Positions 13,002 to 64,000 of a stretch of 64,000 bases of DNA are shown in pieces; position 1 is the first letter of the stretch, and every line of letters starts with the position of its first letter. Position numbers and translations under genes: made by a program. The DNA comes from a virus (lineage: Duplodnaviria > Heunggongvirae > Uroviricota > Caudoviricetes): the IMG/VR virus record IMGVR_UViG_3300045988_155182. One strand, given 5' to 3'. The notes under the pieces are model-generated. The model was not told the DNA's origin, made no database searches, and saw only the letters and a program-made list of their open reading frames with translations.

Positions 13002-13888
13002 CGGACATCATCATTAAACGCTACCGCCCTGAAGAGTTTCCGCGTCATCTGGACTTTCTGGAGCGAATGACTGTTACAAAGGGAACTGTAGAGGACTGGC
13101 ACGCTCTTAAGTCGCTTCACTACAAAACAGACGGCAAACCTTTCGCGCCAACTTACTATCGCTGCGAACTTGATGACCGTCTGGTGGGCGTCGTGGTTAT
13201 GGCTTACCCGAAACTACTGTTGGCACCTCGCCACCGCATGTTTCCTAAGTTGAAACCAACCACTAATACCACCGTGGCTAACCAGTACTGGGGTCGGTAC
13301 GTGAATAACAACTTTGCGGTGATCAGTCGCTCAGTTGTGGATACTCAGTATCGTGGCGTAGGCGTCTCTTATCGAATGATTAACCTGGTTAGCAGGATGC
13401 ATGACCGGCCAATCATTGAGATCCAGTCCTCGATGAGCAAATACAATCCCTTCGCCATGAAAGCAGGGTTTAAGTTCATCCGCCCTGAGCGACCGAAGAG
13501 CTATGAAAGTGCACTGCGTGTATTCCAGCGCCATTTTCGTTCCGACCCGGGTGATAACGAGGCGATCGTTAAAGAGTTGTTCGCTATGAGCGAGTCTCGT
13601 CGTCGCCGTGCACTGCGTGATCTGGTGGCGGACTACCACAAGAACAGTTCCCTGGCAAAAGCTGGGCGGAATCGTGGCACGACGATTCAGGACATTGCCG
13701 ACAGTCTGGTGGACGAGGCCAGCATTGTGAAGCTGCTCAAGGACATTCACAACCTGAGCTTTACGTCTCCGTTGTATGGTGTGTATCGAAACCCTGACTT
13801 TGGTCGTCGACTGCCTGACACGCTGCCACTGCTGGCATTCGACAAACAACCTTTGGATAAACCGTTAGAAATTGCTTTACCGGCATAA
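12998..13888 (+). CDS. Hypothetical protein with possible GNAT-like acetyltransferase core (YRGVGVS)
   Basis: Weak motif resemblance only. Confidence 0.4.
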   Translation: MTDIIIKRYRPEEFPRHLDFLERMTVTKGTVEDWHALKSLHYKTDGKPFAPTYYRCELDDRLVGVVVMAYPKLLLAPRHRMFPKLKPTTNTTVANQYWGRYVNNNFAVISRSVVDTQYRGVGVSYRMINLVSRMHDRPIIEIQSSMSKYNPFAMKAGFKFIRPERPKSYESALRVFQRHFRSDPGDNEAIVKELFAMSESRRRRALRDLVADYHKNSSLAKAGRNRGTTIQDIADSLVDEASIVKLLKDIHNLSFTSPLYGVYRNPDFGRRLPDTLPLLAFDKQPLDKPLEIALPA

Positions 13889-13897
13889 GGATTTGCC

Positions 13898-14164
13898 ATG
13901 ACGTTAACCGACAAACAAAAGGACATCATCAAAACGCTCAATCTCGGTTATGAGCGAGGTCATCTACTTGACCTGGACGAATTGCTTGAAGTTTTGCCGT
14001 ACAAGACAACCAAGCAAAGTATCCAGTTCTCAATTCGCGCTCTGATAAAAAAGGGGCTGGTGGAGAAAGGGCATACGCGCCAACGCAGTGACAATCGCTA
14101 TCACCGCCGGACTCTTGGGTTAACCACTTTAGGTCGAGCCAAAGCGAAGTTACTGGTGATGTAA
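13898..14164 (+). CDS. Small basic protein, possible winged-helix DNA-binding protein
   Basis: ORF track; composition only. Confidence 0.35.
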   Translation: MTLTDKQKDIIKTLNLGYERGHLLDLDELLEVLPYKTTKQSIQFSIRALIKKGLVEKGHTRQRSDNRYHRRTLGLTTLGRAKAKLLVM

Positions 14165-14188
14165 TCGGTCTGGGAGCTTATTTAAAGA

Positions 14189-14245
14189 CCTGCATCTGTA
14201 TATATAAATAATAAGTAACTTATTAAATATATACGGAAGCAGGCT
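14189..14245. repeat. Long imperfect palindrome (cctgcatctgtatatat...ataagtaacttat...atatatacggaagcagg) centred on a TAAGTA motif
   Basis: Near-copy at 48427-48480; seen directly. Confidence 0.55.
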
Positions 14246-14278
14246 TCGTAAGACATGCCAGACCTAATTAAACACCCC

Positions 14279-14322
14279 AGAAAACAAGTTGGTTAGCAGA
14301 TGCAGTAAACAAGTTGTTTTAG
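14279..14322 (+). promoter_or_regulatory. Double early operator (agaaaacaagttggtt ... taaacaagttgttttag)
   Basis: Motif family member upstream of the terminase small subunit gene. Confidence 0.45.
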
Positions 14323-14359
14323 AGCGCATGGACGCGCTCTGTGTGTTTTAGAGGGATCT

Positions 14360-14992
14360 ATGACGGTCGAAAAAGACGAGGTAAAAACTCGCCTGACACC
14401 AGCGGAGTGGGCCGAAGCTGAAGCCAAATGGACGTCAGGCGAATATACACTCTCAAAGCTGGAGGAAGAGTACGGCATTCGTCGTGAAACACTCTCCAGA
14501 CATTTCAAAAAGCGAGGATTAGAGAAAGGCGCGGACTCTGTTGGGAAGATGGTTCGTGAGTCTCTTAAATCTGACGCAGAGCTTCGCGCTAAAGCCCGTG
14601 CGGAAAAGATAGAAGAACGTCGTACACGTTATGACGGCTGGGCGTATGCGTTGGGGCAGATGGTGATGGTCGAAGTCACTACGGCCAAACGTGAGGGTAA
14701 GCCTTTAGGGGCGATTGAGGATTCTCTCAAGAGCTTACAGAGAGCCAGTAATACCCTTGCAAAATGCTTTGAAGTTTCGTCCAAAGCATTGGGTATGGAT
14801 CATGCGGAAAATGACGAGGAAGAAATTCCGAATCTGGTATTTGGTGAGCTTACGCCTTCCCAGGTGGCGAAATTACGTCAGGAAGACGACGAGCCTGAAA
14901 TCATCGATGACGAATTGCTTGAGACGTTGGAAGAAGAAGCTCTAAGCGAATTTGATGCGACAGATGATGGAAGTGAAGGGGAGGACGAATAA
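14360..14992 (+). CDS. Terminase small subunit (N-terminal HTH, acidic C-terminus)
   Basis: Position directly upstream of terminase large; HTH-like YTLSKLEEEYGIRRETLSRHF. Confidence 0.6.
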   Translation: MTVEKDEVKTRLTPAEWAEAEAKWTSGEYTLSKLEEEYGIRRETLSRHFKKRGLEKGADSVGKMVRESLKSDAELRAKARAEKIEERRTRYDGWAYALGQMVMVEVTTAKREGKPLGAIEDSLKSLQRASNTLAKCFEVSSKALGMDHAENDEEEIPNLVFGELTPSQVAKLRQEDDEPEIIDDELLETLEEEALSEFDATDDGSEGEDE

Positions 14993-16248
14993 TGGCAATC
15001 CCGTCCTCGCTCAGTCTTGTGCAACTGCATTCTGGACAGATGAAAGTCTTCCAGTCTCCGCATCGATTTAAAGTTGTTTGTGCTGGTCGACGCTGGGGAA
15101 AATCCCGGTTGTCGATCTCCACTATTATTCGTGCGGCGGCAAAGGAAAAAAAGCAAAGAGTCTGGTATGTCGCTCCTACTTACCAGATGGCTCGCCAGAT
15201 TTTGTGGGACGATCTACAGGAAGTTCTGCCTCGTAAGTGGGTTAGGAAAAAGAACGACACCACGATGACAATCGTGTTGAAGAACGGTTCGGAGATCGCC
15301 CTCAAAGGTGCTGATAAGCCTGACACTCTGCGCGGCGTAGCGTTGCATTTTGTAGTGCTTGATGAATTTCAGGATATGAAGGCTGACACCTGGTACAAGG
15401 TGTTACGACCTACTCTTTCATCGACACGCGGCGGTGCACTGATCATTGGTACGCCAAAAGGCTTCTCGGAATTTCACAAACTGTGGACTATAGGCCAGAA
15501 CGTAGAGCTGCAAAGAAAGGGACAGTGGAAGAGCTGGCAGTTTGTAACTGCCGATTCTCCGTTTGTACCTACGGCGGAAATTGAAGCTGCTAAGAACGAT
15601 ATGGACCCGAAATCGTTCGCTCAGGAGTACCTGGCGAGCTTTGAGAACATGTCCGGGCGCGTTTACTACCCGTTCGATCGTAACGTGCATGTAAAACCGC
15701 TTCAGTTCAACCCTCGGTTGCCTATATGGGTAGGGCAGGACTTCAACATTGACCCGATGTCTTCAGTAATTTTGCAACCTCAGCCAAATGGTGAGCTATG
15801 GGCAATTGATGAATTGGTGCTCTTTTCCTCTAACACGGCAGAGGTTTGTGATGAGCTTGAGAGACGCTTCTGGCGCTGGAAATCACAGATAACGGTATTT
15901 CCAGATCCGGCAGGTGCTTATCGCCAACATGCTCGCGGGGAGTCTGACGTCGACATATTCAAAGAGAAGGGATTCTTACGTGTCGATTATTCGAAAAAGC
16001 ACCCGCCAATTGCGGATCGTGTTAATGCTGTTAACCGAATGCTGATGACCGCATCTGGAGATATCCGGCTGTATATCGATCCGAAGTGCAAGCATTTGAT
16101 TGATTCACTGGAAAAAGTCATCTACAAGCCTGGAACACGAGATATGGATAAGACAGGTGGCATTGAGCATAGTGCAGACGCATTGGGCTATCCAGTACAT
16201 CGTAGGTATCCAGTCAAAAACCGTGTTATTCTTGGTGGTTCTCGATAG
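14992..16248 (+). CDS. Terminase large subunit
   Basis: Walker A-like VVCAGRRWGKS, Walker B VVLDEF; gene order. Confidence 0.8.
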   Translation: MAIPSSLSLVQLHSGQMKVFQSPHRFKVVCAGRRWGKSRLSISTIIRAAAKEKKQRVWYVAPTYQMARQILWDDLQEVLPRKWVRKKNDTTMTIVLKNGSEIALKGADKPDTLRGVALHFVVLDEFQDMKADTWYKVLRPTLSSTRGGALIIGTPKGFSEFHKLWTIGQNVELQRKGQWKSWQFVTADSPFVPTAEIEAAKNDMDPKSFAQEYLASFENMSGRVYYPFDRNVHVKPLQFNPRLPIWVGQDFNIDPMSSVILQPQPNGELWAIDELVLFSSNTAEVCDELERRFWRWKSQITVFPDPAGAYRQHARGESDVDIFKEKGFLRVDYSKKHPPIADRVNAVNRMLMTASGDIRLYIDPKCKHLIDSLEKVIYKPGTRDMDKTGGIEHSADALGYPVHRRYPVKNRVILGGSR

Positions 16249-16267
16249 GTAAGTAATTATCTAAGGT
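16245..16267. repeat. TAAGTA palindrome variant (gataggtaagtaattatctaagg)
   Basis: Seen directly. Confidence 0.45.
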
Positions 16268-16274
16268 TATTCAA

Positions 16275-17849
16275 ATGGAATTGAACGACAAACAAATTAA
16301 GGATCTGGTGGCGCGACGCCACCCGGAATACGAAAAGAAAAAAGAACATTGGGACTTCCTCGCCAGCACTTACGCTGGCGGGCGTGGTTGGTTTACAGAC
16401 AATATCTTTCGTTACTTTAAAGAGGGAGATCAGGAGTTTAAGGAGCGAGTTGAACGTGCTTATCGCTTCAACCACACTCGTGAGGTGGTAAACCTCATCA
16501 ACAAATATCTCTTTAAAGAAGACATTCATAGAAATATCGAAGAGGCACCAGAGCAGATCCGCAATTTCTGGAAACGTGCGACTCGCCAGAATGCCTCTAT
16601 TGACTCATTTATGGCCGCTATTGATTTGCAGTCGTCTATTTACGGTCGCATATGGGTTGTTGTCGATAGCACGATGAGTGGTGATGTTGAGTCAGTAGCT
16701 GACGAGAAAAAGAAAGATGCTCGCGCCTACGCCTACTGGATTTCACCTCAGCAAATGCTGGATGTGGCATGGGACGACGACGGGAATATGTTGTGGGCGT
16801 TAATTGTGGAAGTCGCTCGTGATGACGCAGATCCTTTTACTTCTACAGGTCAGGAATACCAACGTTATCGTCTGTGGACACAAAACGAGTGGTATCTGTT
16901 CCGTGAGGAAGTGAAGAAGGGCGCTGGTGGAGCAGGTCGCCGTCAGGCAAAAGTTATTTTAGAGGATAGCGGTGAGCATAATCTCGGCGTAGTTCCTGTG
17001 TTTCCTGTTGATTGTATTGGAGAAAGTGAATCACCGTATTTCAGCCCATCGTTGATCGATGATATCGCTTATCTTGATCGTGCGGTTGCAAACTATCTGT
17101 CAAACCTTGATGCCATTATTCAGGATCAGACATTTAGCCAGTTGGCTATACCGGTACAGTCGCTTTTACCTGGTGATGAAAACCACACTAAAGTGCTTGA
17201 AATGGGCACAAAGCGAGTCTTCACCTACGATTCTGAAGGTGGAAACCAGCCGTTTTATCTGTCACCAGACCCGAAACAAGCTCAGATGATCATCACTACG
17301 ATTAAGACGGTGATTAACGAAATCTACCATTCAGTTGGTGTAGCTGGTGAGCGAACGAAGCAGGACAACGCACAGGGAATCGATAATTCATCTGGTGCCG
17401 CAAAAATGTATGACTTCCAGCGTGTAAATAGCTTGCTTGTCACAAAAGCAGAGCGTCTGGAAAGGGCTGAACGCCAAATCATGCTACTGGTTGCGAAATG
17501 GATGGGGGTAGATCTGGACGAAGACCACTCTTTAATTGCATATCCAGAAAGTTTCGATATTCGTGGCCTTACTGATGAATTTTCTGTTGCCGAGAAACTG
17601 TCATTACTTCAGGCACCGGACTCTGTACGTCGTCACCAGATGGAAATGCTTATTGAGAAGATTTTCCCGAACATTACTGAGGCGATGAAAAAGGAATTTG
17701 ATAAAGATCTCTTGAATTTTCCTCCAAAAAATGATCTAAATACCCTTGAAAATAAGTCAGTACTTACTTATGATCGTGGTGCAGCCCAAGAAAGCGGGCA
17801 AGATCAACCCCGAGGGAATGGGGACTCATCTACTCAAGAGAACGAGTGA
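16275..17849 (+). CDS. Portal protein (524 aa)
   Basis: Size and position directly after terminase large. Confidence 0.7.
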   Translation: MELNDKQIKDLVARRHPEYEKKKEHWDFLASTYAGGRGWFTDNIFRYFKEGDQEFKERVERAYRFNHTREVVNLINKYLFKEDIHRNIEEAPEQIRNFWKRATRQNASIDSFMAAIDLQSSIYGRIWVVVDSTMSGDVESVADEKKKDARAYAYWISPQQMLDVAWDDDGNMLWALIVEVARDDADPFTSTGQEYQRYRLWTQNEWYLFREEVKKGAGGAGRRQAKVILEDSGEHNLGVVPVFPVDCIGESESPYFSPSLIDDIAYLDRAVANYLSNLDAIIQDQTFSQLAIPVQSLLPGDENHTKVLEMGTKRVFTYDSEGGNQPFYLSPDPKQAQMIITTIKTVINEIYHSVGVAGERTKQDNAQGIDNSSGAAKMYDFQRVNSLLVTKAERLERAERQIMLLVAKWMGVDLDEDHSLIAYPESFDIRGLTDEFSVAEKLSLLQAPDSVRRHQMEMLIEKIFPNITEAMKKEFDKDLLNFPPKNDLNTLENKSVLTYDRGAAQESGQDQPRGNGDSSTQENE

Positions 17850-17870
17850 TAAGTAACAAAAGGAATTTTT

Positions 17871-18758
17871 ATGAATCTGTGGCAAATGCTTTTGGCCCGT
17901 CGTGGTCTGATGGATGTCGCTGAAGCGCATGAGCGTGGAGGCGCTGGCGGTGTAGCTGCTGATAATGAGCAGAGTACACAAGATCCTGACAAACAGGGTG
18001 AACAAAAAGAGCAGCCGAAGGGCGATGACGAATACGCTGGCATGACTCAGGAAGAGTTACTGGCCGAACTTCGTAAAACCAAGAAAGCTGGTGCTGAACT
18101 GCTGAAGGAGAACATGAAGCGCAAAGAGAAAGAGCGCACATTGGCCGATCAGCTTGCTCAGTACGGTGATATCGATCCGGCTCGTGCTCGCCAGCTTTTA
18201 GAAGCTGAACAGGCCGCAGAAAACGCACGTCGTGAGGCGGAGCAAGCTGAACTGGAGCGTCGTGGTGAGTTCGATGCTGTTAAAAAACAGATGATCGAAG
18301 CACACCAGGCAGAGCTGGCACAGCGTGACGAACGTTATGCAGCACTGGAAAGTGAAAACGCATCACTGAAATCTCAATTAGTCGAGATGACCGTGGGCGC
18401 TTCCTTCAGTAACTCTCTCTTCCTACGTGACAAAGTTCTGATGACCCCGGCAAAAGCCCGCGTGATCTACGGTTCTCATTTTGAAGTGGGTGAAGACGGT
18501 AGCGTAGTGGGTTATGACAAACCGGCAGGTCACAAAGAACGAGCTGTTCTGGTTGACGGTGAAGGTAAGCCGTTGCCGTTTGAATCCGCGATTGAACGCA
18601 TTGTGCGGGCAGATCCGGAAGCTGACGCATTGATGCGTAGCGAAGCCAAGCAGGGTGTAGGCTCACATTCCAAATCGACCTACACAATATCCCAACCGAA
18701 GAACAAGTCGACTATGGATAAGTTGGCCTCCGGTCTGGGGAAAATTGGACTTAAGTAA
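17871..18758 (+). CDS. Head scaffolding protein (charged, coiled-coil-like)
   Basis: Position between portal and capsid; E/K/A/R-rich helical composition. Confidence 0.55.
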   Translation: MNLWQMLLARRGLMDVAEAHERGGAGGVAADNEQSTQDPDKQGEQKEQPKGDDEYAGMTQEELLAELRKTKKAGAELLKENMKRKEKERTLADQLAQYGDIDPARARQLLEAEQAAENARREAEQAELERRGEFDAVKKQMIEAHQAELAQRDERYAALESENASLKSQLVEMTVGASFSNSLFLRDKVLMTPAKARVIYGSHFEVGEDGSVVGYDKPAGHKERAVLVDGEGKPLPFESAIERIVRADPEADALMRSEAKQGVGSHSKSTYTISQPKNKSTMDKLASGLGKIGLK

Positions 18759-31902: not shown

Positions 31903-34900
31903 TTGAACATGGAACAGTTCAAGAAGAAAAAGCTACCGCTGTTTATTGCCGGTGCGGGTGGTAAAAAAAGCAGCAAAAGCTCCAGCCGTACACCTGTTGA
32001 AGCCGACGATACCGTAAATTCTCGTGCAATGGCCGCTATCCTCGATCTTCTTGGGGAAGGGGTAATTGGCGGCTTAGTAAATGGCGCAAGATCTATTTTT
32101 ATCGACGATCTGCCGATTGTAAATGAAGACGGTTCCTCCAACTTCAGCGGAATCACATGGGATTTTCGCGACGGTTCACAAGACCAGACTCCAATGTCTG
32201 GCTTTGATTTCGTTGAAACGCCTAAATCCGTCAATATCCAGTTAAAAAAAACACATTATGTAACGGTTTCAATCGATAACGATGAAGCTGATCGGGTTCG
32301 TGTCATCATGAAGTTTCCTTCTTTGCGAAGCATAGATAAAAAAACTGGTGACACGAACGGTACGACTGTTGAGTACAAGTTCCAGATAGCAAATGGCGAC
32401 TCAACATTTGTAGATGTGGTCGCTGAAGGTGAAAAAAGCGTTGGCATTAAGCTAACAGCAAAGAAGACCGGCGTTTATTACCGTAGCTATGAGCTGAAGC
32501 TGCCTAAGCCTGGACGAGCATACAAGGTTCGTGTGGTCCGTATTACCGATGATAACAGTAGCCAGTATCTCTATAACGATACATGGGTGGATTCAATCGG
32601 GGAAATTGTCGATACACCGATGAACTATCCAAACTCTGTTTTGGTTGGATTGAAGGTAAACTCTGAGCAATTCGGCAGCACCATGCCATCTCGCTCTTAT
32701 CTGGTGCGTGGCCTAAAAATTCGAGTACCTTCAAACTATAACGAGTCCAGTAACACTTACGCTGGGGTATGGGATGGCACTTTTAAGCTGTTGTCTTCTT
32801 CGAACCCCGCGTGGATTCTCTTTGATTTGCTGACCAATGCTCGATATGGCCTTGGTCAGTATGTGTCGGAATCTATGATTGACCTTGGCCAGTTGTACCA
32901 GATTGGTCGATATTGTGACGAAGAGGTCGATGATGGCTTTGGTGGCAAAGAGAAACGCTTTGCAATCAATACGCAGATCACCAGTCGACAGGACGCATAC
33001 CGGCTAATTCAGGATATTGCCGGAGCATTCCGCGGCATGGTGTTTTGGGCTGGTGGGATGGTTAACATCATGCAGGATAGCCCATCAGATCCGGTAATGA
33101 TGTTTACCAACTCTAACGTCAAAGATGGATTGTTTACCTATAAAGGTTCTGCGCGTAAAGATCGCCCATCCGTTGCGCTCGTAACCTACAACAACAAGGA
33201 GGACGGTTATAAGCAAAACATCGAGTACGTCGAAGATCAGGACGCAATGCGCCGTTATGGTGAGCGTAAAACAGAAGTCGTAGCATTTGGCTGTACAAGC
33301 CGAGGGCAGGCTCACCGAGTTGGTTTGTGGCTTTTATATACCGCCAGAATGGAGTCGGATGTAATTACATTTACTGCCGGCTTAGACGCGTCATTTCTGA
33401 TGCCTGGTGAAACCGTTCTGATTCAGAACAAATATCGCGCAGGCAAACGTAACTCAGGTCGAATTGTGGCGTTTACCAAAAACAGCGTCACACTCGATGC
33501 GCCTGTGTCGTTAGCCAAAGGCGGCTGCTTTATTCGAATACTGAATCAGGAAGGCAAAATCGTTGAACGCGATGTTCTTGAAACTGGCGAAAATATAACA
33601 AAAGTTACGTTTTCAAAAGCCCTGTCTTCGGCTGAAACGCCTGTTTTGAACGGCGTCTGGACTATTACAGAACCAGACCTCGAACCTATGCGCGTTCGCA
33701 TCGTTAACATCGCGCAGGGGGAAACGCCGGGTAGCTTTGACATCACCGCTGTTGAGAACAATCCGTCTAAATATGAGGCAATCGACAATGGTGCAACGCT
33801 GATCCCGCAGAATACGACGGTATTGGACCCAACTTACTCCAAGCCATCTAATCTGCAAATCACTGAAGGGACTTATCTCTCAAGCCCGGGCAACCTGTCA
33901 GTAAAACTGACTGCAACATGGGAAGGGAAATCTCCAGAGTATTGGATCAGTTGGCGACGTTCTGATGAAAACAATGTATCGAACTGGCAATCGGCGCGTG
34001 TAACCGAAGAGCAATACGAAATCGTTAATGTCGCGGAGAATGGACGCTACGACTTCCAGCTGTATGCGGTTTCATTCAACGGTAAAAAAACAGAGATTAT
34101 CAGTACCGTTTATCAGGTGTTGGGCACAATGACACCGCCGGATGCCCCAACGTCATTAACGGCCGTTGGAGACTATCGTAATGTGATACTGAATTGGGTT
34201 AATCCAGATTCGGTAGACCTTGATCACATTAATGTTTACGCATCCCAGACCAACAATCTGGATACGGCGAAACTGATCGCAGAGTCTGCAAGCACCACCT
34301 TTACACATGCTGGTCTTGGGGATAGCGAAACGTGGTATTACTGGGTTCGAGCATCGAACAAGCGAGGTATGTTAAGTCCTCCGAACTCAAACTTGGGTAC
34401 AGAGGCGACAACTCGCGATGTACTGTCGTTCCTGACTGGCAAAATTACATCTTCCGAGCTTGGTCAGGCTCTGCTTGAGGACATCAACAGCAAAGCCTCT
34501 CAAGAAGCAGTTGACGAGTTAAATGAGCATATCAACCAGAGCGTCGAATCTTTGGAGGGGGCGGTAAACGACGTTAAGGAAGATATAGCTGAATTAGATA
34601 AGCAGTTCAGCGATAACCTCGCGGATTTTGAAATAAAATTCAACGAGCGTAGCGATGCTTTGGAGAACGCACAAACCGAGCTTAAAGGTGAGGTTTCGGC
34701 AACGATCGACAAGGTCAATGAAGCGTTTGAAAAAATTGATGCTACTGATGCTGCAATTGTTGAAATCGAAAACACCGTATCTGAACACGATAAAGCTCTC
34801 GCTAATACAGTCGAGGCAATAAAGGCTGCAAGAGATGAAGCGGCGGCTCTTATTGCTAAGGAAAGCGAGGCTCGTGTTGAAGGCGATGCTGCAAACGCTA

Positions 34901-55375: not shown

Positions 55376-56122
55376 TTTTATGTATAAGATGACTTTGTTT
55401 TCGTTGAGACGCGACTGTTTGAACTTAAATACAAGTGCAAACGAAGAAGTCTATCTGGCAGTAGCCTAATAAGCCAAACACCAGCGAGGTCAGTTTCCAG
55501 CCTCGTTACCGAAATGGGATACACTGAGCGAGTGTGATTACAGAACGCAGGAGGGAACATGAATGTTCCCTCCGATGAAGTAACAGAATGGGCGGTTGGT
55601 ATATTTTCAACTCCATATGACTCCCGGATTCTTAGCCACTGACCGCCCATCCTGTTACGTCATTTTGTTCAATTATGTCGTTTATACTGGGTTAAAAAGC
55701 GGCGACGTAGCCCGGCTGGTATGGTTAGCCAGCACACAACGTTGAGGCCATTACATTTTTATCAATTCTAAGGTTCTATTCACAGAGATACCGGCGAGCG
55801 TTGATATGTAACATGTTGGGCAAACATTCAATCGGAGTAGTGGCCTCAACGTTGTGAAGACAGGATTGTTGTGTAGGTTTAACCACTGTTGCCATTGGTG
55901 CCTGTTTTCACAACAAATGATTCCATACATCACATTGTATAAATTACAAAGTAGGTGCTGTCCTCAGAAACATCATCTACTTAAAGAGTTTGCCTTCTAC
56001 TATTGAGCGAAGTCGAAAGCGTCTGGCACTAACGAAAAGTGCAAGTAGCGGTGCGTTTCCTGGCAGAAACTAAACCGTCGCGATTGGCACTGTTGAGTAA
56101 TGAATACAGGCAGTGCTGAATT

Positions 56123-56197
56123 GATGGTGTAGCTCAGCGGTAGAGCAGTTGGCTGTTAACCAACTGGTCGGTGGTTCGAATCCACCCACCATCGCCA
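56123..56197 (+). tRNA. tRNA-Asn (anticodon GTT)
   Basis: Acceptor stem gatggtg/caccatc, anticodon loop cTGTTAa, T-loop GGTTCGAATCC, encoded CCA. Confidence 0.8.
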
Positions 56198-56199
56198 AT

Positions 56200-56275
56200 G
56201 CCGGTTTAGCTCAGTTGGTAGAGCGCCTGCCTTGTAAGCAGGATGTCAGCGGTTCGAGTCCGTTAACCGGCACCA
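56200..56275 (+). tRNA. tRNA-Thr (anticodon TGT)
   Basis: Acceptor stem gccggtt/aaccggc, anticodon loop cTTGTAa, T-loop GGTTCGAGTCC, encoded CCA. Confidence 0.8.
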
Positions 56276-56498
56276 ATACAACGATAAGATCATTACGGTT
56301 AATCGTCGTTCATGTGCACAATGACTGGTCGAAAGGTAGTGATCTTACCGTTGTGGTGGATTCGCAGACTGATGCGATAGCTTTCTTGGATGTTAGGGAA
56401 ATGCGGCCGCAAATCTTCCCTTTCGCGAGCGGTGATCGTCCGTAGTCCTAATTGGCTGCACCGTATGCCGGAGATTCAGTACCGGCCACCACAACGGC

Positions 56499-56585
56499 CG
56501 GAGAGTAGGGAGCATGGTGCTCAAGCGGTCTTGAAAACCGTCCCATTGCGCAAGCGATGATGGTTCGATTCCATTACTCTCCGCC
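56499..56585 (+). tRNA. tRNA-Ser (anticodon TGA), type II with long variable arm
   Basis: Acceptor stem ggagagt/actctcc, anticodon loop cTTGAAa, long variable arm, T-loop GGTTCGATTCC, encoded CCA. Confidence 0.7.
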
Positions 56586-56586
56586 A

Positions 56587-56665
56587 GACACAGCGTTGAG
56601 CGGTTTGGCCTTTTAATCAACTCGATTAAGACTCCGCTAACATAAACCAGACCGCTCAACGCTGT
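56587..56665. repeat. Perfect 16 bp inverted repeat (cacagcgttgagcggt ... accgctcaacgctgtg) with about 46 nt loop, directly after tRNA-Ser
   Basis: Seen directly. Confidence 0.6.
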
Positions 56666-56740
56666 GATAGACAATTACGGCAGACGTTCTTAACCATAGC
56701 TTGCTAACATCCTAGCAACACTTTTTTAAGCGCAAAATCC

Positions 56741-56766
56741 AAAGGGGCTTCGGCCCCTTTTTTGTT
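56741..56766. terminator. Bidirectional terminator (aaaggggc-ttcg-gccccttttttt)
   Basis: Seen directly; sits between the tRNA cluster and the convergent minus-strand gene. Confidence 0.6.
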
Positions 56767-57673
56767 AATGATTGCCTAGATATGATTTTAGTTCTTCTTT
56801 AATGATTAGTGAGTATTCTAAAATATCACTTAGTAAAAATTTTGCTCTGTTAAAATACCCACCAAAAGAACCTAAAATTTCAGATGGTCTTTCTAAGAGC
56901 ATCACAATATCATCTTCTTGCACTTTAGTAATGTAACTTCTAACAGCTCTTTCTCCAATAACTCTTTTCTTACCGTTTATTTCAGATTCATCTAAAACCT
57001 TATTTATAAATTTTTCTGTATCATTGAATCGTCCACTATTGTGTACTATTGTATGTCTTAGTAGTTCAATTAGCTTGATGTTAAAGCGATAGTTTTTGCC
57101 AATCTTGTTGTTTGTTTCTATCTCTTTGAAGCCAGGTATTTTATTTCTGAAAATTTTAGTTATTTTTTTCGATGGGTTACTTTTTGCTTTTAATAATCTG
57201 TAATAAACTTCCCTTTTCCCAATTTCATCATCTTCAACCTTACCAAAATCACTTGAGGACCATAAATCATTTCGAACACATACAGTATAGACATATATTG
57301 CCTCAATATAGTCTTCCAGTAACTCATAGGCTTCAGTAATAACCCACTGATATTGTTTATTTTTCAAAGTATTACACAATCTTATCTTTTCTTCTAAATC
57401 AATGGCGCTGTTACCTATCTCTAATGTTGAACCTGTATATGGGTTTGAACATAAATGGCGAGCTAACGTTGTGCCACACTTAATCTTAATAGTTTCATTA
57501 ATATTAATAATAGTATCTGGATTCTGTGCATACTCCACTTCTTTAAGAAGACGTTTTATATTTTTCTTTGTTGTATCATTTATCTGATTTAAATAGTCAA
57601 AAAGTAAAGATATTTCTTCTCTAAATTCGTTGTATTTATTTTCAATCAAAGAATCAGACAACTTACCAATCAT
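56765..57673 (-). CDS. HEPN-like / Abi-family candidate protein (302 aa), AT-rich
   Basis: Rx4H motif (LLRHTIVHNSG) in the C-terminal half; only minus-strand gene in this block; markedly AT-rich, Lys/Asn/Ile-rich. Confidence 0.45.
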   Translation of the reverse strand: MIGKLSDSLIENKYNEFREEISLLFDYLNQINDTTKKNIKRLLKEVEYAQNPDTIININETIKIKCGTTLARHLCSNPYTGSTLEIGNSAIDLEEKIRLCNTLKNKQYQWVITEAYELLEDYIEAIYVYTVCVRNDLWSSSDFGKVEDDEIGKREVYYRLLKAKSNPSKKITKIFRNKIPGFKEIETNNKIGKNYRFNIKLIELLRHTIVHNSGRFNDTEKFINKVLDESEINGKKRVIGERAVRSYITKVQEDDIVMLLERPSEILGSFGGYFNRAKFLLSDILEYSLIIKEELKSYLGNH

Positions 57674-57758
57674 TAAAACCTCTATAAAATGTACATTTCA
57701 AGGCAATCCTTACTGTAATCTATTGTCGTAATCACTTCAATTGTTTACTAGTCAATCA

Positions 57759-57780
57759 ATAAGTTACTACATACTTATCA
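57759..57780. repeat. TAAGTA palindrome variant (aataagttactacatacttatc)
   Basis: Seen directly. Confidence 0.45.
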
Positions 57781-57846
57781 AAAAAATCTGTTTGTAGTAT
57801 AGTCTGATATGTTCGAATCAATATTTATAAAGGTATTTGTTAAGTT

Positions 57847-58092
57847 ATGACGATCACTATCTACGGACGAGATAACTGCTCATACTGCAAACGTGCGGTC
57901 GAGCTGGCGAAGCAACTAAAGGGACATGGCTACGGTGATTATGAGTACATCGACATCACCACTGCCGGTATCGACAAGGAAAAACTAAGTGAAATTGTTG
58001 GTAAACCGGTAGAGACTATCCCCCAGGTGCTGATCGATGGCCAGCCGATTGGCGGATACACAGAACTGGCTGCATACGTCAGCACCCTCTGA
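57847..58092 (+). CDS. Glutaredoxin / NrdH-like redoxin (81 aa)
   Basis: CSYC active-site motif near the N-terminus; size. Confidence 0.7.
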   Translation: MTITIYGRDNCSYCKRAVELAKQLKGHGYGDYEYIDITTAGIDKEKLSEIVGKPVETIPQVLIDGQPIGGYTELAAYVSTL

Positions 58093-58302: not shown

Positions 58303-59406
58303 ATGAAAAATAGCTTTGACAGAGCACGCGCTGCGGAGAACACCTCAAAAGAGGCGATAGAGTATCTCGAAAGAGCATCTCAAATGCAGGCCGTTATGAT
58401 CTCCCAGGTCAGCAATGACATGAGATTCTCGGACGCATTCATGTTATTCACTCGCTTATCTCTGCTGATAACCAGACGTCGGCCAGAGATCGCTGTTCAT
58501 TGTATTTTGATACATGTTTTGCCGCACATTGCCGATGTAAAAGTAAGTGACATTAATAGGTTCATGGTGAACCAACTGGTCAACCCACTAATACTGGATG
58601 GCAAAATTGTTATGGGCCGCCGCGTTTTCTCTCTGATGAAGCAGTTCCTTAGCTGGTGCGCCTTCCAGGGGATGATAGACGTGTCACCGTTGAACGATAT
58701 GTCACTTAACAAAGTTGCCGGTGGCGCAAAGCCCACACCTCGCGAGCGGAAGCTGACCGACGCAGAGGTATGGGTGTTCTGGAATATATGGGACTACTTC
58801 AATGTGTGTGCTGGTACAAAATGGGCGGCCAGGCTATGTCTTGTATCCGCAAGACGACCTGACGAAGTACTGCGGGCTAAAAAAAGTGAGTTCAATCTTA
58901 AGCGTGGGGTTTGGAATCAAGGCAAGAGGAACAAATCTGCCCGTGAGCATTCTCTGCCTTTAAGCTCATTAATGCGCACTTGTATTGAAGAGTTGTTCGA
59001 ATATGGTAAAGACAGCCAGTGGCTCGTGCCTTCGAATAAAAAAATCGGGAAAGACCTTCCTATGTCTAAAGTGGCAATAGCCCAGGCATTACGTCGTATT
59101 CTGGAACGACCAGAACTGATGGAGCTTGAGCCATTTACACCCCGAGATTTGCGCCGTACTGCGCGTAGTTACTTCCCAGCATTAGGCATAAGCCAGGAGG
59201 TATCACGTAAAATCATGAACCACAGTCTTGAGGGGATAGATCGGGTCTACGACCGGCACGATTATATGGACGAGATGCGAGACGCCTTAGAAAGTTTCTC
59301 GACGTACATCGCATCAATCGTAGAGCAACCGGATTTAGACGAAATTGACCACAAATTTAAGGGAGATCGTCTATCAACAGAGCTTATTCGTGTAAATTTT
59401 TCATAG
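58303..59406 (+). CDS. int: Tyrosine-type integrase/recombinase
   Basis: C-terminal catalytic pattern (RDLRRTARSYF ... HSLEGIDRVYDRHDY) consistent with the R..H..R..Y tyrosine recombinase signature. Confidence 0.8.
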   Translation: MKNSFDRARAAENTSKEAIEYLERASQMQAVMISQVSNDMRFSDAFMLFTRLSLLITRRRPEIAVHCILIHVLPHIADVKVSDINRFMVNQLVNPLILDGKIVMGRRVFSLMKQFLSWCAFQGMIDVSPLNDMSLNKVAGGAKPTPRERKLTDAEVWVFWNIWDYFNVCAGTKWAARLCLVSARRPDEVLRAKKSEFNLKRGVWNQGKRNKSAREHSLPLSSLMRTCIEELFEYGKDSQWLVPSNKKIGKDLPMSKVAIAQALRRILERPELMELEPFTPRDLRRTARSYFPALGISQEVSRKIMNHSLEGIDRVYDRHDYMDEMRDALESFSTYIASIVEQPDLDEIDHKFKGDRLSTELIRVNFS

Positions 59407-59787
59407 AGACTTTATGGCCTCAACAACCTTTTGTGATGCGCCTTTCTCTTTACCGAATCGCTCGTTATATGCAGCAAGAACCTGTTTTTCGTCCTCGTTA
59501 AGAGGAGCAGTGCCTTCTTTGTATAAAAATGCTGCGAGTTCGGGTTGGCGTTCTTCCAGCACCATCATCATAAGACGACTTGGCTCAATGCCCAGTGCCA
59601 GCGCCAGCGGACGAACCTTATCGATAGGCAAAGGAATTTTGCCGCTTTTAATTAAAGAAAGGTTGTTGGCGTTTTTATACCCAATTGTTTTGGCTATCTG
59701 GGCCTGGCTCATAGGTGAGGATTCAATCAACCCTGCGATAAAAGCAGCGTAGCGACTTTCTATAAATTCAATCTTGTTATCAGACAT
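59401..59787 (-). CDS. XRE-family HTH transcriptional regulator (cI/Cro-like)
   Basis: HTH-like QAQIAKTIGYKNANNLSLIKSG; convergent with and overlapping the integrase 3' end. Confidence 0.65.
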   Translation of the reverse strand: MSDNKIEFIESRYAAFIAGLIESSPMSQAQIAKTIGYKNANNLSLIKSGKIPLPIDKVRPLALALGIEPSRLMMMVLEERQPELAAFLYKEGTAPLNEDEKQVLAAYNERFGKEKGASQKVVEAIKSL

Positions 59788-60038: not shown

Positions 60039-60251
60039 ATGAACACCACTATTTCCAGCCTAATCGCTCTTGAGATCGGACACGTACAGAAATTAGCTGA
60101 TGAGTGTGTAGCTGACATCCTCACCGATCTACCGAATGAGCAGATTCAGGTTGGTGTGAATGACACAACTGGATTTATATTCGAACTTAACAACAAACGC
60201 TTCACGCTTCTCAATACCGGCTCCGGGTCTTTAGCCGTCAGAATCTGTTAA
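60039..60251 (+). CDS. Small hypothetical protein (70 aa)
   Basis: ORF track; followed by a GC hairpin. Confidence 0.4.
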   Translation: MNTTISSLIALEIGHVQKLADECVADILTDLPNEQIQVGVNDTTGFIFELNNKRFTLLNTGSGSLAVRIC

Positions 60252-60349: not shown

Positions 60350-62458
60350 ATGTCTAAAAAACGTTCCATCAAAGAGGTTCAGGACTTCCGTGACAGTGTA
60401 AAACGAGTAGTCGCTCTCCTTTCAGGTAAAAACATCCCTGTTGCAGAACGAGGGGACGACGCTTATGTACGCTATAACGATGATGGAGAGCCAATTCTCG
60501 TAAACATCCCATCAATCCCGGATAACGCAACACCGGCATTGATGAATGCTGTGCGCGGATTTCTCGATCATGAGGTTGCTCACATTTTGTTTACCGATAT
60601 TCGTGTGTCCAACAAAATGAGAGAAAAAGGACGCGTTCCTTCCTGGTCGCTATGGAATGCCTTAGAAGACGTGTTCATCGAGCGAAAAATGGGTCAGGTC
60701 TTTAACGGAACAAGACGTAATCTGATGGCAACTCAGCGCCTTATAATCGAAAAAGTCTTTAAACCAAAGGCTTCAGAGGCTATTGCTTATTGTGGCAAAG
60801 ATCAGCGCGCGCTTTTTCTAAACTTCTTTCTCTGTCCGGTTGTAAGAGCCTGGGATGGCCAAGCACCGTTCGTAGACTTCATGGATGAATATTGGCCTGT
60901 CATTGAGAAACCAATTTCATTATTAAAAGAACATGGTATCGATGTGGCCGTGCGTAACATGTCTTGCACCGAGGATTGTGTAAAGGTGGCTGCGACCATA
61001 GCTAAGATCCTCAAAGACACTGAAAGTGAAAGCAAAGGTAAGGAGTCAGCTCCGGGAAAAACTTCCGATCCTTCAGACGCTGACCAGACGGATGCCTCTG
61101 GAGAAAACAATGAAGACAACGAAGATCATGAGACACCCTCATCGTTAGATAATCACAAATCTATTAAATCAGAGTCACATAGTAAGTACAAACATGATAA
61201 TAACGACAGTGATGACTCAGATAATCCTGAATCATCAGAAACAATATTCGATGATACAGAAAATGATAAAGCGGTATCAGATTCTGATGCTTCTGATAAC
61301 GCGGCGTCAGAATCATTAACCGCTGACCACGAAAAAAGAAAAACGACAGAAGACGGCTCTTCAGACATTCCAACTCCGTCAAAAATGAGTCTGGAAGAGG
61401 CTTTAGAGGAGTTGGATAGCATGGAAGATGAAGTCGGAGGCATGACAGAAGATGCGCTATCCGAAACGATTAAAAGCGAGTTAACAGAAAGCTCGAAAAG
61501 CGAATACAGGCCATACAATCGCTCATACGACTTCATCGGCTCGATTGATCAGGCAGAAGCCCATATCAAACGGCTTATTAAAACATTCTCCGATATTGAT
61601 TTAGGTGGATATCCAATCAGCCGTTATCGCATCGTTCCTGAAGGCAACCAACTCTTCGACAAATATATTGAAAAGCACCTTTCGTCAGGTGTTTCGTCGA
61701 CGCTGGCAAAAGACCTGGAACGTGCAATAGCAAGCAGAAACAGAGTTCAGTTTATACCTGGCCAGCGTCGGGGGCGCATTCATGGTTCAAGTATCTACAG
61801 ATTAACAATGAATGATGATCGCGTGTTTCGTAAAAAAGAAGAATCTAAAGCCGTTAACGCCTGTGTTCAACAAGTGATTGATTTATCGGGTTCAATGAGT
61901 GGCGAAACGATAAAACTAGCTCTTGCAAGTGCATATACCATCGCCGATGCACTTGATCGAATAAATGTTCCCAACATTATCACCGGCTTCACTACATTTG
62001 GCAGTCATATGGCAGCAGGAGAACTTAAGGCTATCAAATATGAGTTCTCTCGCTTTGAATCTTTAATGCTACCTATCATCAAAAATTGGAATGAAAAAGC
62101 AAATTCTCGCGAAGTTCGCTCACGTATGGGGTGCGTAGGCTACACATTCCCACTTCTTAATAACGTGGATGGTGAAAGCATAGCCAGCCTTGCATCGTTA
62201 TTTTCCGGTCGCTTGGAGGACAGGAAGATCATGCTTGTTCTGAGCGATGGCGCGCCGTGGGCTGTTGGGAGAGGTTTTGACGCCCATTTGCGGTCGGTTA
62301 CGAAGCAAATTGAAACGCAGACTGACATTGATTTGATGGCAATTGGCATCATGACTGATGCACCGGAGAGATTTTACGCAAATCATGCCCTGGTAACTAG
62401 TGTTGATAGTCTTGGTTCATCTGTAGTTACTGAACTATCTCGTATCATTTTGAAATAA
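60350..62458 (+). CDS. CobT-like protein: N-terminal domain, long acidic Asp/Glu/Ser-rich linker, C-terminal vWA domain
   Basis: MIDAS-like DLSGSMSG in the C-terminal third; very acidic low-complexity middle; paired with downstream AAA+ ATPase. Confidence 0.6.
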   Translation: MSKKRSIKEVQDFRDSVKRVVALLSGKNIPVAERGDDAYVRYNDDGEPILVNIPSIPDNATPALMNAVRGFLDHEVAHILFTDIRVSNKMREKGRVPSWSLWNALEDVFIERKMGQVFNGTRRNLMATQRLIIEKVFKPKASEAIAYCGKDQRALFLNFFLCPVVRAWDGQAPFVDFMDEYWPVIEKPISLLKEHGIDVAVRNMSCTEDCVKVAATIAKILKDTESESKGKESAPGKTSDPSDADQTDASGENNEDNEDHETPSSLDNHKSIKSESHSKYKHDNNDSDDSDNPESSETIFDDTENDKAVSDSDASDNAASESLTADHEKRKTTEDGSSDIPTPSKMSLEEALEELDSMEDEVGGMTEDALSETIKSELTESSKSEYRPYNRSYDFIGSIDQAEAHIKRLIKTFSDIDLGGYPISRYRIVPEGNQLFDKYIEKHLSSGVSSTLAKDLERAIASRNRVQFIPGQRRGRIHGSSIYRLTMNDDRVFRKKEESKAVNACVQQVIDLSGSMSGETIKLALASAYTIADALDRINVPNIITGFTTFGSHMAAGELKAIKYEFSRFESLMLPIIKNWNEKANSREVRSRMGCVGYTFPLLNNVDGESIASLASLFSGRLEDRKIMLVLSDGAPWAVGRGFDAHLRSVTKQIETQTDIDLMAIGIMTDAPERFYANHALVTSVDSLGSSVVTELSRIILK

Positions 62459-62473
62459 TTAAAACAGCCTTAA

Positions 62474-62493
62474 TGATAAGTAACTACTTATCA
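62474..62493. repeat. TGATAAGTA-AC-TACTTATCA perfect palindrome
   Basis: Seen directly. Confidence 0.55.
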
Positions 62494-62553
62494 TAGTTAA
62501 TGGTATATTTATATAAGAACTTGAACGCTCATTAGAGAACAAAGGAAAAGCGC

Positions 62554-63789
62554 ATGACTACTACTGCACTGCAAAATGATAAAAATCCTTCTGATTACCT
62601 TGTTTGCAAGTGGTGCGGCAAATCATTTCACTATTTTAAGTCCCATGTAGCCAATGGTAATTGCGAGGGCATTCCTGAGTCAGTAAAAAATGCCGATCCT
62701 GACACCGTACTGAAAATGTACACAACGCAGTTTCCAGATGAACCAACGCTATCGAAAAAGGCACTTGATGCAATTCAAGCTAAACGTGCCGAGCAAAAAA
62801 GCGAAATGGCGAAATCTTCTGGCTTGACCAGTAGCCCAGGCTACACAGGCACAGTTGAGTACAAGACAGATCTGGTCGCAGCTCACGAACTGCTAAACGT
62901 AACGGTGGAAGAACTCGGAACAAAACGTGGGACGCCGCTCATGGTTAGCGTCAACGTCAATACGCCGTATCCAGAGTTCGTTCCAGAAGTGAAGAAGGGC
63001 TACGTATATGGCGACTTCGAACTGATCAAAGATATTTTCATGATGCTTGAACTTGGCATACCTGGCTATTTGTGGGGTCATGCAGGAACAGGCAAATCGT
63101 CATTGCCTACACAGCTATGTGCTTTGCTCAATCGTCCGTTGATCCGTGCCCAACATACAGCATCAATGGAAGAGGCACATGTTACGGGGCAAATTCTGGC
63201 GCGTGATGGCTCTACGTATTTCGAGCCTGGCTTGCTTGCGCTCGCAATGAAGCATGGCTGGGTTTACCTCGCGGATGAATACGACTTTGCGTTTCCACAA
63301 ATTCTTGGCGTGTATCAGCCAGTGCTGGAAGGTGAGGCGTTGGTCATCAAAGAGGCAACTCCAGAATGGCGTCGCATTACTCCGCATGAACGGTTTGCTT
63401 TCATTGGCACTGGCAACACAAACGGTTCTGGTGATGAAACCGGCTTGTACCAGGGTACAAACATCCAGAACGCCGCGAACTTTTCGCGTTTTGGCATCGT
63501 TTCGAATGTGAAATACATGAGCAAAGAGGCAGAGATCAACATGTTGATAAATGCCGGTATCGTGGATGAATACGCAGAAAAGATGGTTAAGTTTGCCGGT
63601 ATCGTTCGCGATGGATACGAAGAACACCTTATCAGTCAGCCAATTGGCCCTCGTGAACTTTTGTTGTCGGCCAAGATTGGAATGATGCGAGGCGACTTTG
63701 TGACAGGTATTGAGCGTTCTTTCATTAACAAACTCCCTTCAGCTTCTGCACAAGCGGCTCGTGAAGTTGTTCAAAAAATATTTGGTTAA
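62554..63789 (+). CDS. CobS/MoxR-like AAA+ ATPase
   Basis: Walker A GHAGTGKS, Walker B YLADEYD. Confidence 0.7.
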   Translation: MTTTALQNDKNPSDYLVCKWCGKSFHYFKSHVANGNCEGIPESVKNADPDTVLKMYTTQFPDEPTLSKKALDAIQAKRAEQKSEMAKSSGLTSSPGYTGTVEYKTDLVAAHELLNVTVEELGTKRGTPLMVSVNVNTPYPEFVPEVKKGYVYGDFELIKDIFMMLELGIPGYLWGHAGTGKSSLPTQLCALLNRPLIRAQHTASMEEAHVTGQILARDGSTYFEPGLLALAMKHGWVYLADEYDFAFPQILGVYQPVLEGEALVIKEATPEWRRITPHERFAFIGTGNTNGSGDETGLYQGTNIQNAANFSRFGIVSNVKYMSKEAEINMLINAGIVDEYAEKMVKFAGIVRDGYEEHLISQPIGPRELLLSAKIGMMRGDFVTGIERSFINKLPSASAQAAREVVQKIFG

Positions 63790-63791
63790 TC

Positions 63792-64000
63792 GTGCGTAAA
63801 GGATGTTTCGGCTCTCTTATCGCTGCTTCTGAAACTGGCAAGGCTTGTCTGGGGTGTCCAGACAAGCCCGATTGTCACCAATCAGCAAAAGAAGTTGCGA
63901 TTTCGATGTATGGGAAGTTCGTAGGCTTCCCCAATGACAAAATCAAAAAAACCAGAAAGGTAAAAACACATGAAGGCACTGATGGTTCGAACTGACTTCT
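63792..64000 (+). CDS. Partial ORF running off the window end, Cys-containing
   Basis: ORF track 63792..63995; truncated by the window. Confidence 0.25.

Follow-up and report, generated by a model that had tools for sequence, protein, structure and literature searches.

The stretch of DNA analyzed in this study (64,000 nucleotides; hereinafter referred to as the window) corresponds to the IMG/VR virus record IMGVR_UViG_3300045988_155182 and was identified as an SSU5-like phage-plasmid of E. coli. Two open reading frames (ORFs) separated by 95 nt were found toward the right end of the window, at exactly 60350-62458 (702 aa) and 62554-63789 (411 aa). From the sequence alone, this region had been described as a CobT-like protein with a von Willebrand factor A (vWA) domain, paired with a CobS/MoxR-like AAA+ ATPase (hereinafter referred to as the sequence-only reading). 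The description was borne out by both ORFs and by their Pfam and PDB matches. The features of the two genes are as follows:

[quoted passage not shown]
60350..61012, plus strand: N-domain (aa 1-221), predicted M48-like gluzincin fold; HExxH at aa 74-78 (nt 60569-60583), with E106, D107 and E111 on the next long helix
61013..61504, plus strand: acidic low-complexity linker (aa 222-385, 164 aa), net charge about -35
61736..61855, plus strand: shaft-aligned segment (aa 463-502; Brucella CobT Q373-R413), from residue-level alignment to 9uka_G
61823..62452, plus strand: CobT_C vWA domain (aa 492-701); MIDAS D511-x-S513-x-S515 (nt 61880-61894), with D633 in an SDGAP motif
62554..63789, plus strand: CobS-like AAA+ ATPase, 411 aa
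62584..62754, plus strand: Ros/MucR-type zinc-finger domain (aa ~11-67); C18-x2-C21-x9-H31 with H26 and C37 nearby, then Y56, P61 and S67
62977..63786, plus strand: AAA+ module (aa 142-411); Walker A GHAGTGKS at 175-182 (nt 63076-63099), Walker B D241-E242 (nt 63274-63279)

The CobT-like protein matched the Pfam families CobT (PF06213; aa 9-292, E 6e-27, 95.2 bits against a gathering cut-off of 26.1) and CobT_C (PF11775, the vWA domain; aa 492-701, E 6e-83, 278.3 bits, cut-off 21), and the CobS-like protein matched AAA_5 (aa 173-293, E 2e-15, 57.4 bits, cut-off 22). In PHROGs, the two were assigned to phrog_1576 (unknown function, E 5e-301) and phrog_249 ("porphyrin biosynthesis", E 2e-106), respectively. 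The closest solved structure was Brucella melitensis CobT (E 4e-17) for the former and Brucella CobS (9ujv, E 1.8e-25) for the latter, which showed approximately 27-30% identity to true CobS. Since the Pfam domains scored above the gathering cut-offs and no solved structure was closer than CobS and CobT, the pair is a member of the CobS/CobT superfamily; the E-values of these family-level profile matches were very low, and chance is not an issue for this sequence-based assignment.

The sequence-only reading had called for profile searches that separate CobS/CobT from defence-associated MoxR/vWA families. These searches placed the pair in the CobS/CobT branch, with Midasin, CbbQ, NorQ and NorD far behind among the PDB matches. 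The NorQ/NorD, CbbQ/CbbO, CoxD/CoxE, RavA/ViaA and Midasin systems share with the window pair the logic of an AAA_5 ring with a MIDAS adaptor that grips a client, but they are far more distant (NorQ, E 1.5e-3; NorD, E 2.7e-4; CbbQ, E 4.7e-6) and none of them carries the CobT N-domain. PADLOC-DB v2 assigned neither protein to a defence family and returned nothing for the ATPase. A match of the CobT-like protein to DrmE (16 bits, E 7e-4, aa 340-533) was judged spurious, since it extends from within the low-complexity linker to the C-terminal domain.

A complete AAA+ site and an adjacent vWA protein with an intact MIDAS, the sequence hallmarks of a MoxR-type pair, were both present. Besides the Walker motifs, the ATPase contained sensor 1 (N288), the Arg finger (R312) and sensor 2 (R367). 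These motifs aligned to G71-S78, D141-E142, N186, R210 and R271 of Brucella CobS, every nucleotide-site residue was kept, and the motifs were invariant across the homologue alignments. The MIDAS residues D511, S513, S515 and D633 of the adaptor were invariant in 50 relatives and aligned to Brucella D422, S424, S426 and D546.

In the Brucella CobSTN complex, solved by cryo-EM, CobS forms a hexameric ring, and CobT consists of an N-domain resembling M48C peptidases, a linker of ~90 aa that is disordered, a shaft (Q373-R413) in the ring pore, and a vWA domain whose MIDAS is turned toward CobN (bioRxiv 10.64898/2026.07.21.739949; PDB 9ujv/9uka). Like Brucella CobST, the window pair combines a CobS-branch AAA+ ATPase with an adaptor made up of a predicted M48-like N-domain, an acidic linker, a segment aligned to the shaft and a vWA domain with MIDAS. 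The differences from the metabolic proteins concern the N-domain, the shaft and pore, and both termini of the ATPase.

An intact HExxH motif, absent from the sequence-only reading, was identified in the N-domain. In the AlphaFold2 model of aa 1-230, with a predicted local distance difference test score of 93.3, strands were assigned at 39-42 and 48-52, a helix at 62-81 bears HExxH, and a helix at 99-117 bears the Glu residues; HExxH on one helix and Glu ligand candidates on the following helix are the sequence signature of zincins. Within the pattern "GFLDHEVAHxLF ... NxxEDxxIE", D73, H74, E75, H78, E106, D107 and E111 were invariant or nearly so among 50 diverse relatives (27-47% identity). 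HExxH was kept in 142 of 146 full-length cluster representatives (97%) and in all 120 close homologues. In contrast, it has been lost from the bona fide CobT proteins of S. meliloti, Cereibacter azotoformans and Pandoraea oxalativorans, which were taken from cobS-cobT loci: HExxH occurred nowhere in all three, and the stretch aligned to the HExxH region was GLGDSMALRKACHD. A Foldseek search of the CobT_N model against the PDB gave nothing at E<1, with ArdC as the best match (E 1.8), and a single-sequence search of the PDB with the N-domain gave chance matches only (HLA, SOD).

Against the NCBIfam equivalog models, the CobT-like protein scored 68.8 bits (TIGR01651; cut-off 759), with only aa 297-697 aligned, and the CobS-like protein scored 84.8 bits (TIGR01650; cut-off 558.55). 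In a single-sequence search, only the C-terminal half of the adaptor aligned with true CobT. No cobN, cob or cbi gene was present in the fully annotated 109-kb relative NZ_CP034066.1, in which the pair is 99.7% identical, and its nucleotide genes (class Ia NrdAB, thymidylate synthase, and dihydrofolate reductase) are all B12-independent. Since the equivalog cut-offs were missed widely and there is no chelatase context, the clear orthology to metabolic cobaltochelatase that the sequence-only reading had raised as a counter-explanation does not hold. The pair is not a metabolic cobaltochelatase but a separate mobile-element lineage of the CobS/CobT family.

Further differences from the metabolic proteins lie in the parts through which ATPase and adaptor meet. 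The C-terminal helix alpha10 by which true CobS binds CobT_N (Brucella A322-V326) is missing, as the phage proteins stop at the equivalent of residue ~315. The shaft tip is basic in the window adaptor and acidic in true CobT, with a net charge of +1 to +6 (median +3) in 55 mobile-element sequences versus -2 to -3 in three true CobT proteins. At the pore positions S102, R103 and R147 of Brucella CobS, the window ATPase has E206, E207 and F247. The net charge of the ATPase pore region was not clearly different from that of true CobS (median -2 versus -2 to 0), and only positions 206, 207 and 247 differ, so the argument for charge co-variation rests mainly on the shaft side. The reversal of shaft-tip charge, together with the pore substitutions, suggests a private, co-evolved ATPase-adaptor pairing. 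The gene order in the window, cobT then cobS, is also the reverse of that at the three metabolic loci. As a general rule for mobile elements, this order was rejected: in Roseobacter phage CRP-810 and in Gordonia phages, cobS precedes cobT.

Gene clusters of the same family and with the same adjacency have been described as viral cobST clusters in tailed phages and archaeal viruses, where cobT is often annotated as a peptidase; cobS and "peptidase" genes belong to the core genome of T4-like cyanophages (Liu et al., 2021; PMC8651126). That study treats the peptidase label as an error and proposes that viral CobS/CobT acts as an auxiliary metabolic gene product that takes over a host CobN or ChlH-type subunit and raises cobalamin synthesis, whereas HExxH...E is conserved in the clade of the window; the SSU5-supergroup version also differs by an added zinc finger and linkage to DnaE. 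The takeover proposal agrees with the place of the pair in the CobS/CobT branch, not in other MoxR families, and with the presence of MIDAS, shaft and linker. For the window pair, we nevertheless consider it very improbable, given equivalog scores far too low, an element with no cobN/cob/cbi gene and a B12-independent ribonucleotide reductase, the absent CobS helix for CobT_N, the reversed shaft charge, the retained HExxH, and relatives that sit beside ssb-bet-exo on IncC conjugative plasmids. Moreover, E. coli, Shigella, Yersinia, V. cholerae and A. baumannii are not known to have the CobN-dependent aerobic route.

The ATPase also carries a Ros/MucR-type zinc-finger domain, which the sequence-only reading had not mentioned and which is absent from true CobS. 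The N-terminus of the ATPase is ~80 aa longer than in true CobS, and the pattern C18-x2-C21 ... H31 ... Y56 ... P61 ... S67 in this extension was invariant, with a clade consensus of C-x2-C-x9-H-x4-H. When aligned by hhalign, the N-terminal segments (window first) matched six MucR proteins with 94.8% probability (E 5.5e-8, 44 columns); the six comparison genes were chosen by annotation from alphaproteobacterial plasmids. Three homologues scored above the gathering cut-off of Pfam ROS_MUCR (PF05443), and 12 of 59 matched it at E <= 0.01. The window ATPase alone stayed below significance in this Pfam search, and its full ligand set is incomplete, with N36 in place of the last His (C37 is adjacent). 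The C-x2-C-x9-H spacing and the following Y...P...P...S/A helix region are common to the window finger and the prokaryotic C2H2 domain of Ros/MucR (PF05443; Ros87 structure 2jsp). Unlike in Ros/MucR, however, the window finger is joined to an AAA+ ATPase, and the N-terminal oligomerisation domain of MucR is missing. The zinc finger of Ros/MucR proteins binds DNA, and DNA binding by the window finger is putative.

The acidic linker pointed out in the sequence-only reading is real and extends beyond the ~61000-61400 given there (61013-61504). Its 164 residues include 50 D/E, 15 K/R, 44 S/T and 18 hydrophobic residues, and the share of D/E is 30% versus 12% in the remainder of the CobT-like protein. 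The linker is not a tandem-repeat array, with only a 9-nt unit of 2.6 copies detected. A disordered acidic linker was also found in Brucella CobT (~90 aa; residues ~226-320), in the CobT proteins of S. meliloti, Cereibacter and Pandoraea, and in nearly all relatives examined; judged from these sequences, it is an ancestral trait of the CobT family. The linker therefore gives no support to the suggestion, made in the sequence-only reading, that it could mimic nucleic acid, nor to its being a special feature or a decoy for DNA-binding proteins. Its dense negative charge (50 D/E in 164 aa) would suit such a role, but charged linkers are generic to MoxR-vWA systems (PMC7159879). The linker is also poorly conserved, showing 38% identity to a homologue versus 76-77% for the flanking domains, and the distance from HExxH to MIDAS varied from 296 to 585 residues across representatives; fast divergence and variable length are, as far as sequence comparison goes, the behavior of a flexible tether and not of a shaped mimic. 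Proteins known to mimic DNA are folded and carry their charges in fixed arrays, and we regard mimicry by the linker as hardly conceivable.

The recurrence of such pairs in phages and phage-plasmids without a defined role, as stated in the sequence-only reading, was confirmed on a wide scale. A search for the family gave 5048 cluster representatives (50% identity) at E <= 1e-3 and 514 at E <= 1e-30. By tblastn, relatives were detected in 81 phage records (SSU5-like, Klebsiella, Rhizobium, Pseudomonas, Stenotrophomonas, Roseobacter, Vibrio ICP2, Gordonia, and Tsukamurella) and in 1850 plasmid records, 831 of which were conjugative. In a scan of viral contigs, at least 600 stretches matched and 479 were confirmed as relatives. 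The viral-contig relatives used here were taken from the best 80 matches and represent close SSU5-like elements only; the wider diversity was drawn from the cluster representatives and from the tblastn searches against phages and plasmids. The 4-kb region of the pair showed 99.7% identity to many plasmids of ~110 kb, 97-98% identity to phages Cyrano, CMS-2020a and PhiR41_1, and 74% identity to Salmonella phage SSU5. At >=95% identity, the pair was present in 219 of 5426 complete E. coli genomes (~4%), on a plasmid each time and never on the chromosome.

From left to right, the window contains a cluster of three tRNA genes, a glutaredoxin gene, an integrase gene, a helix-turn-helix (HTH) gene on the minus strand, and then a rightward operon that runs from a 70-aa ORF through the CobT-like gene, the CobS-like gene and a 67-aa Cys-rich ORF to dnaE, which leaves the window. 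The features around the pair are as follows:

56123-56586: cluster of tRNA-Asn(GTT), tRNA-Thr(TGT) and tRNA-Ser(TGA)
58303-59406: integrase
59401..59787, minus strand: gene for an HTH repressor-like protein of 128 aa (matches to Pfam HTH_19 and to phrog_8, transcriptional regulator), with transcription leading away from the operon of the pair
60039..60251, plus strand: small ORF, 70 aa, first gene of the rightward operon (phrog_2627, function unknown; hypothetical protein in Cyrano and RefSeq plasmids)
63792..63995, plus strand: small Cys-rich ORF, 67 aa (phrog_6337, E 3e-46; motif C..x13..CxxC..x5..CH)
~63970 to beyond the window, plus strand: dnaE (DNA polymerase III alpha), position inferred from the collinear Cyrano and RefSeq plasmid records

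The head position of the pair in an operon, a further point absent from the sequence-only reading, was conserved across the SSU5 supergroup. The order CobT-like, CobS-like, zero to three small genes or a sigma factor, and DnaE was found at all eight loci compared, with identities as low as 37% (the window, phage Cyrano, Acinetobacter plasmid p5626, Rhizobium phage RHEph10, Pseudomonas phage nickie, and the metagenomic or genomic contigs L171, L172 and L173). A divergent HTH regulator gene lies upstream of the pair at five of them (the window, Cyrano, p5626, L172, and L173). DnaE is followed by the single-stranded DNA-binding protein gp32 at four loci (Cyrano and the three contigs). In Cyrano, L172 and L173, genes for a 5'-3' exonuclease and for RecA come after gp32; contig L171 ends earlier. 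The pair heads a conserved operon, CobT-CobS-DnaE-gp32-exonuclease-RecA, that is transcribed away from the repressor gene. Among more distant carriers, the podovirus ICP2 has the pair just upstream of primase, helicase and Pol A genes. On IncC plasmids, a protein with CobT_N, HExxH and a vWA domain and an AAA_5/CbbQ_C ATPase are encoded inside an ssb-bet-exo-DUF3150 cluster. The context consisted of DNA metabolism or "early" genes in most carriers, and of a structural module in none of the elements inspected.

In the IncC plasmid pNDM102337 (NC_019045.2, 2804-10797), the genes are ordered AAA_5/CbbQ_C ATPase, hypothetical, ssb, bet, exo, DUF3150, and vWA protein. The latter has a CobT-type N-domain with HExxH in the form AHEAAH (33% identity over aa 1-187) and a MIDAS-like motif. 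The IncC cluster differs from the window pair in that its two genes are not adjacent, and it contains no acidic linker, zinc finger or nearby polymerase. The sampled plasmids with a tblastn match to the N-domain only were of IncC type.

This context bears on a role in the virion, in which the pair would assemble or mature structural proteins as an assembly chaperone with a processing protease. Such a role has been proposed for group 2.2 jumbo phages, in which a MoxR-type ATPase is encoded beside a vWA protein with an N-terminal metallopeptidase domain; the MoxR-vWA tail-assembly system of the archaeal virus ATV, for which a function in tail development has been shown, is cited there as precedent (Iyer et al., 2021; PMC7824862). 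The architecture of the window pair fits and, by that likeness, falls in the same class. The jumbo-phage pair was placed in virion assembly, whereas the window pair stands in a replication/recombination operon far from the structural module of the element, with this synteny at all eight related loci; conjugative IncC plasmids, which form no virions, carry relatives of it, and its ATPase bears a DNA-binding-type finger. A virion role is thus decidedly improbable for the window pair.

A second alternative is that the pair inserts a metal cofactor into an enzyme of the element, e.g., NrdB with its di-iron centre or DnaE with the metal site in its PHP domain, with the zincin site being structural or regulatory only. 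This would accord with the general role of MoxR-vWA pairs (PMC7159879) and with the analogy to NorQ/NorD, CoxD/CoxE and CbbQ/CbbO, of which NorQ, NorD and CbbQ are detectable as remote relatives. In the SSU5 supergroup, the DnaE encoded immediately downstream has a PHP domain, and the loss of HExxH in some lineages fits a core function that is not proteolytic. No client is common to all carriers, however: ICP2 has Pol A, not DnaE, the contexts in Gordonia phages and CRP-810 differ, and the 18-kb region inspected in IncC plasmids shows no polymerase or ribonucleotide reductase. Further, the retention of HExxH...E at 97% argues for selection on a catalytic site. We consider metal insertion clearly unlikely.

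We very much favor the general view that the window pair is a non-chelatase MoxR/vWA machine. The full proposal, i.e., that it is a CobN-independent remodeller of the MoxR class, possibly proteolytic, that acts on a DNA-associated client, is put forward more tentatively, as possible rather than probable. By homology with Brucella CobST, the CobS-like protein would form an ATP-hydrolysing hexameric ring, on which the CobT-like adaptor would dock with its shaft segment in the pore. The MIDAS vWA domain would capture the client protein, and ATP hydrolysis would be relayed to it via the shaft and the long acidic tether; the tether would also bring the zincin domain within reach of the client, and cleavage might follow. 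In the finger-bearing clade, the Ros/MucR finger may position the machine on DNA. Because the two genes are transcribed together with those for the replisome and recombination from a region facing the repressor, we infer that the pair would act early after induction or infection and on a DNA-associated client. This client may be a replication protein, of the phage or of the host, or a protein of the host nucleoid or its defences that is bound to the DNA of the element. It would probably be a protein that matters for the onset of replication once the element has been induced or has entered a cell.

Several observations weigh against the full proposal. The HExxH histidines are gone in 4 of the 146 representatives and in Pseudomonas phage nickie and Acinetobacter p5626, and because the latter two keep the gene order unchanged, catalysis does not appear to be universally required; it may be dispensable in some lineages, and the core activity may lie elsewhere. 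The finger is absent from the ATPases of ICP2, IncC plasmids and Gordonia phages, so tethering to DNA is not a family-wide property. CRP-810 and the Gordonia phages place cobS-cobT among small early genes with no polymerase nearby, and the synteny within the SSU5 supergroup may reflect common descent, not function.

A related alternative is an anti-defence or host-takeover protease that degrades a restriction or defence factor, or a silencer such as H-NS, on entry or induction. It overlaps with the proposal of a remodeller on a DNA-associated client and differs from it only in naming a host client. No defence-related profile match was obtained in PADLOC or elsewhere, and a literature search on the pair gave no report of anti-defence activity. 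In addition, the fold similarities are near the noise level, and proteolysis appears dispensable in some lineages. This alternative is unlikely, though not negligible.

A more specific version of the remodeller proposal, which we offer as a long shot, is that the pair is a DNA-tethered, ATP-driven protein stripper and protease of mobile elements: the finger would sit on AT-rich DNA of the element, the MIDAS would grip a DNA-bound host protein, and the ring and zincin domain would extract and cleave it so that the replisome can start. Candidate clients would be H-NS or another xenogeneic silencer, a complex of a restriction or defence system, and a replication protein that has stalled. If true, the pair would be a prokaryotic mobile-element analogue of the Cdc48-Wss1/Spartan logic, and the conservation of "CobS/CobT" in phages, phage-plasmids and conjugative elements of hosts without an aerobic B12 route would be explained.

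Several additional observations were made on the neighborhood of the pair. The 67-aa Cys-rich ORF starts 3 nt past the stop codon of the CobS-like gene and overlaps the inferred start of dnaE; translational coupling is possible, and its small product may bind zinc and act as a partner of either the pair or DnaE. The DnaE genes downstream of the pair in L171 (10845-14237), L172 (10657-14013) and L173 (11387-14809) showed a C-terminal match to uracil-DNA glycosylase (UDG). In Acinetobacter p5626, a UDG-family gene is separate from DnaE, and the note on the RHEph10 polymerase mentions "uracil-DNA glycosylase-like". Outside the window, the RecA gene of Cyrano (32279-34618) and of a Shigella plasmid (41503-43842) has ~780 codons and is labelled as LAGLIDADG homing endonuclease in RefSeq, which suggests a RecA that contains an intein. 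Contig L172 corresponds to Photobacterium ganghwense PYMI01000002.1, in which the module from repressor through CobT-like, CobS-like, DnaE, gp32 and exonuclease to RecA (5514-17976) lies on a 1.05-Mb contig and is either an integrated relative or a chromid-borne copy.

Promoter-like and terminator-like sites in the window were no more numerous than in shuffled sequence, and no promoter is claimed. No terminator-like site was found on the plus strand between the genes of the operon, which is weak evidence, and short repeats in the intergenic region between repressor and operon were unremarkable. Left of the integrase, an ORF of 302 aa (56765-57673, minus strand) had phrog_35492 (unknown function, E 3e-211) as its sole match, Pfam and PADLOC giving none. 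It lies in a low-GC patch (38% GC over 56001-58000 versus ~45-48% elsewhere), and other genes (encoding a Gp49-family or hypothetical protein) occupy its position in Cyrano and the Shigella plasmid. The interval from the tRNA cluster to glutaredoxin, which holds this ORF, looks like a variable cargo slot. The gap between tRNA-Thr and tRNA-Ser is 224 nt in the window versus 8 nt in Cyrano, where the cluster lies at 16312-16482, suggesting a small insertion or rearrangement.

Public labels of the pair were inconsistent. The CobT-like protein is labelled "cobaltochelatase CobT-related protein" in RefSeq, and "porphyrin biosynthesis protein" and "cobalamin biosynthesis protein CobT" also occur. 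In phage Cyrano (OV696614.1, 20351-23790), the two genes are labelled "dimethylbenzimidazole phosphoribosyltransferase" and "cobalamin synthetase", which are the functions of the unrelated CobT and CobS of Salmonella nomenclature; the Cyrano labels are a misannotation through this collision of names.

Viral cobST clusters (PMC8651126) and phage pairs of MoxR with a metallopeptidase-vWA protein (PMC7824862) were already known, and the exact pair is present in hundreds of sequenced plasmids. A literature search returned nothing on the HExxH contrast between the mobile clade and metabolic CobT, on the Ros/MucR-type finger of the ATPase, or on the reversed shaft charge. It likewise returned nothing functional for SSU5 cobT/cobS, SXT cobS/bet/exo, the IncC von Willebrand protein, or the expression timing of cyanophage cobS. 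The three features refine a known kind and do not make up a category of their own.

Few "auxiliary metabolic genes" of tailed viruses are conserved as widely as those resembling CobS/CobT, which occur also in archaeal viruses, actinophages and phage-plasmids and are routinely counted as vitamin B12 metabolism in virome studies. For the lineage of the window, this annotation is probably wrong, as argued by the retained zincin site, the finger of DNA-binding type and the close linkage to replisome genes. As the pair resides in a genetically tractable phage-plasmid of E. coli, it offers a route to what viral CobS/CobT do, and the zincin site, the finger and the replisome linkage supply concrete point mutants and assays for finding its function.

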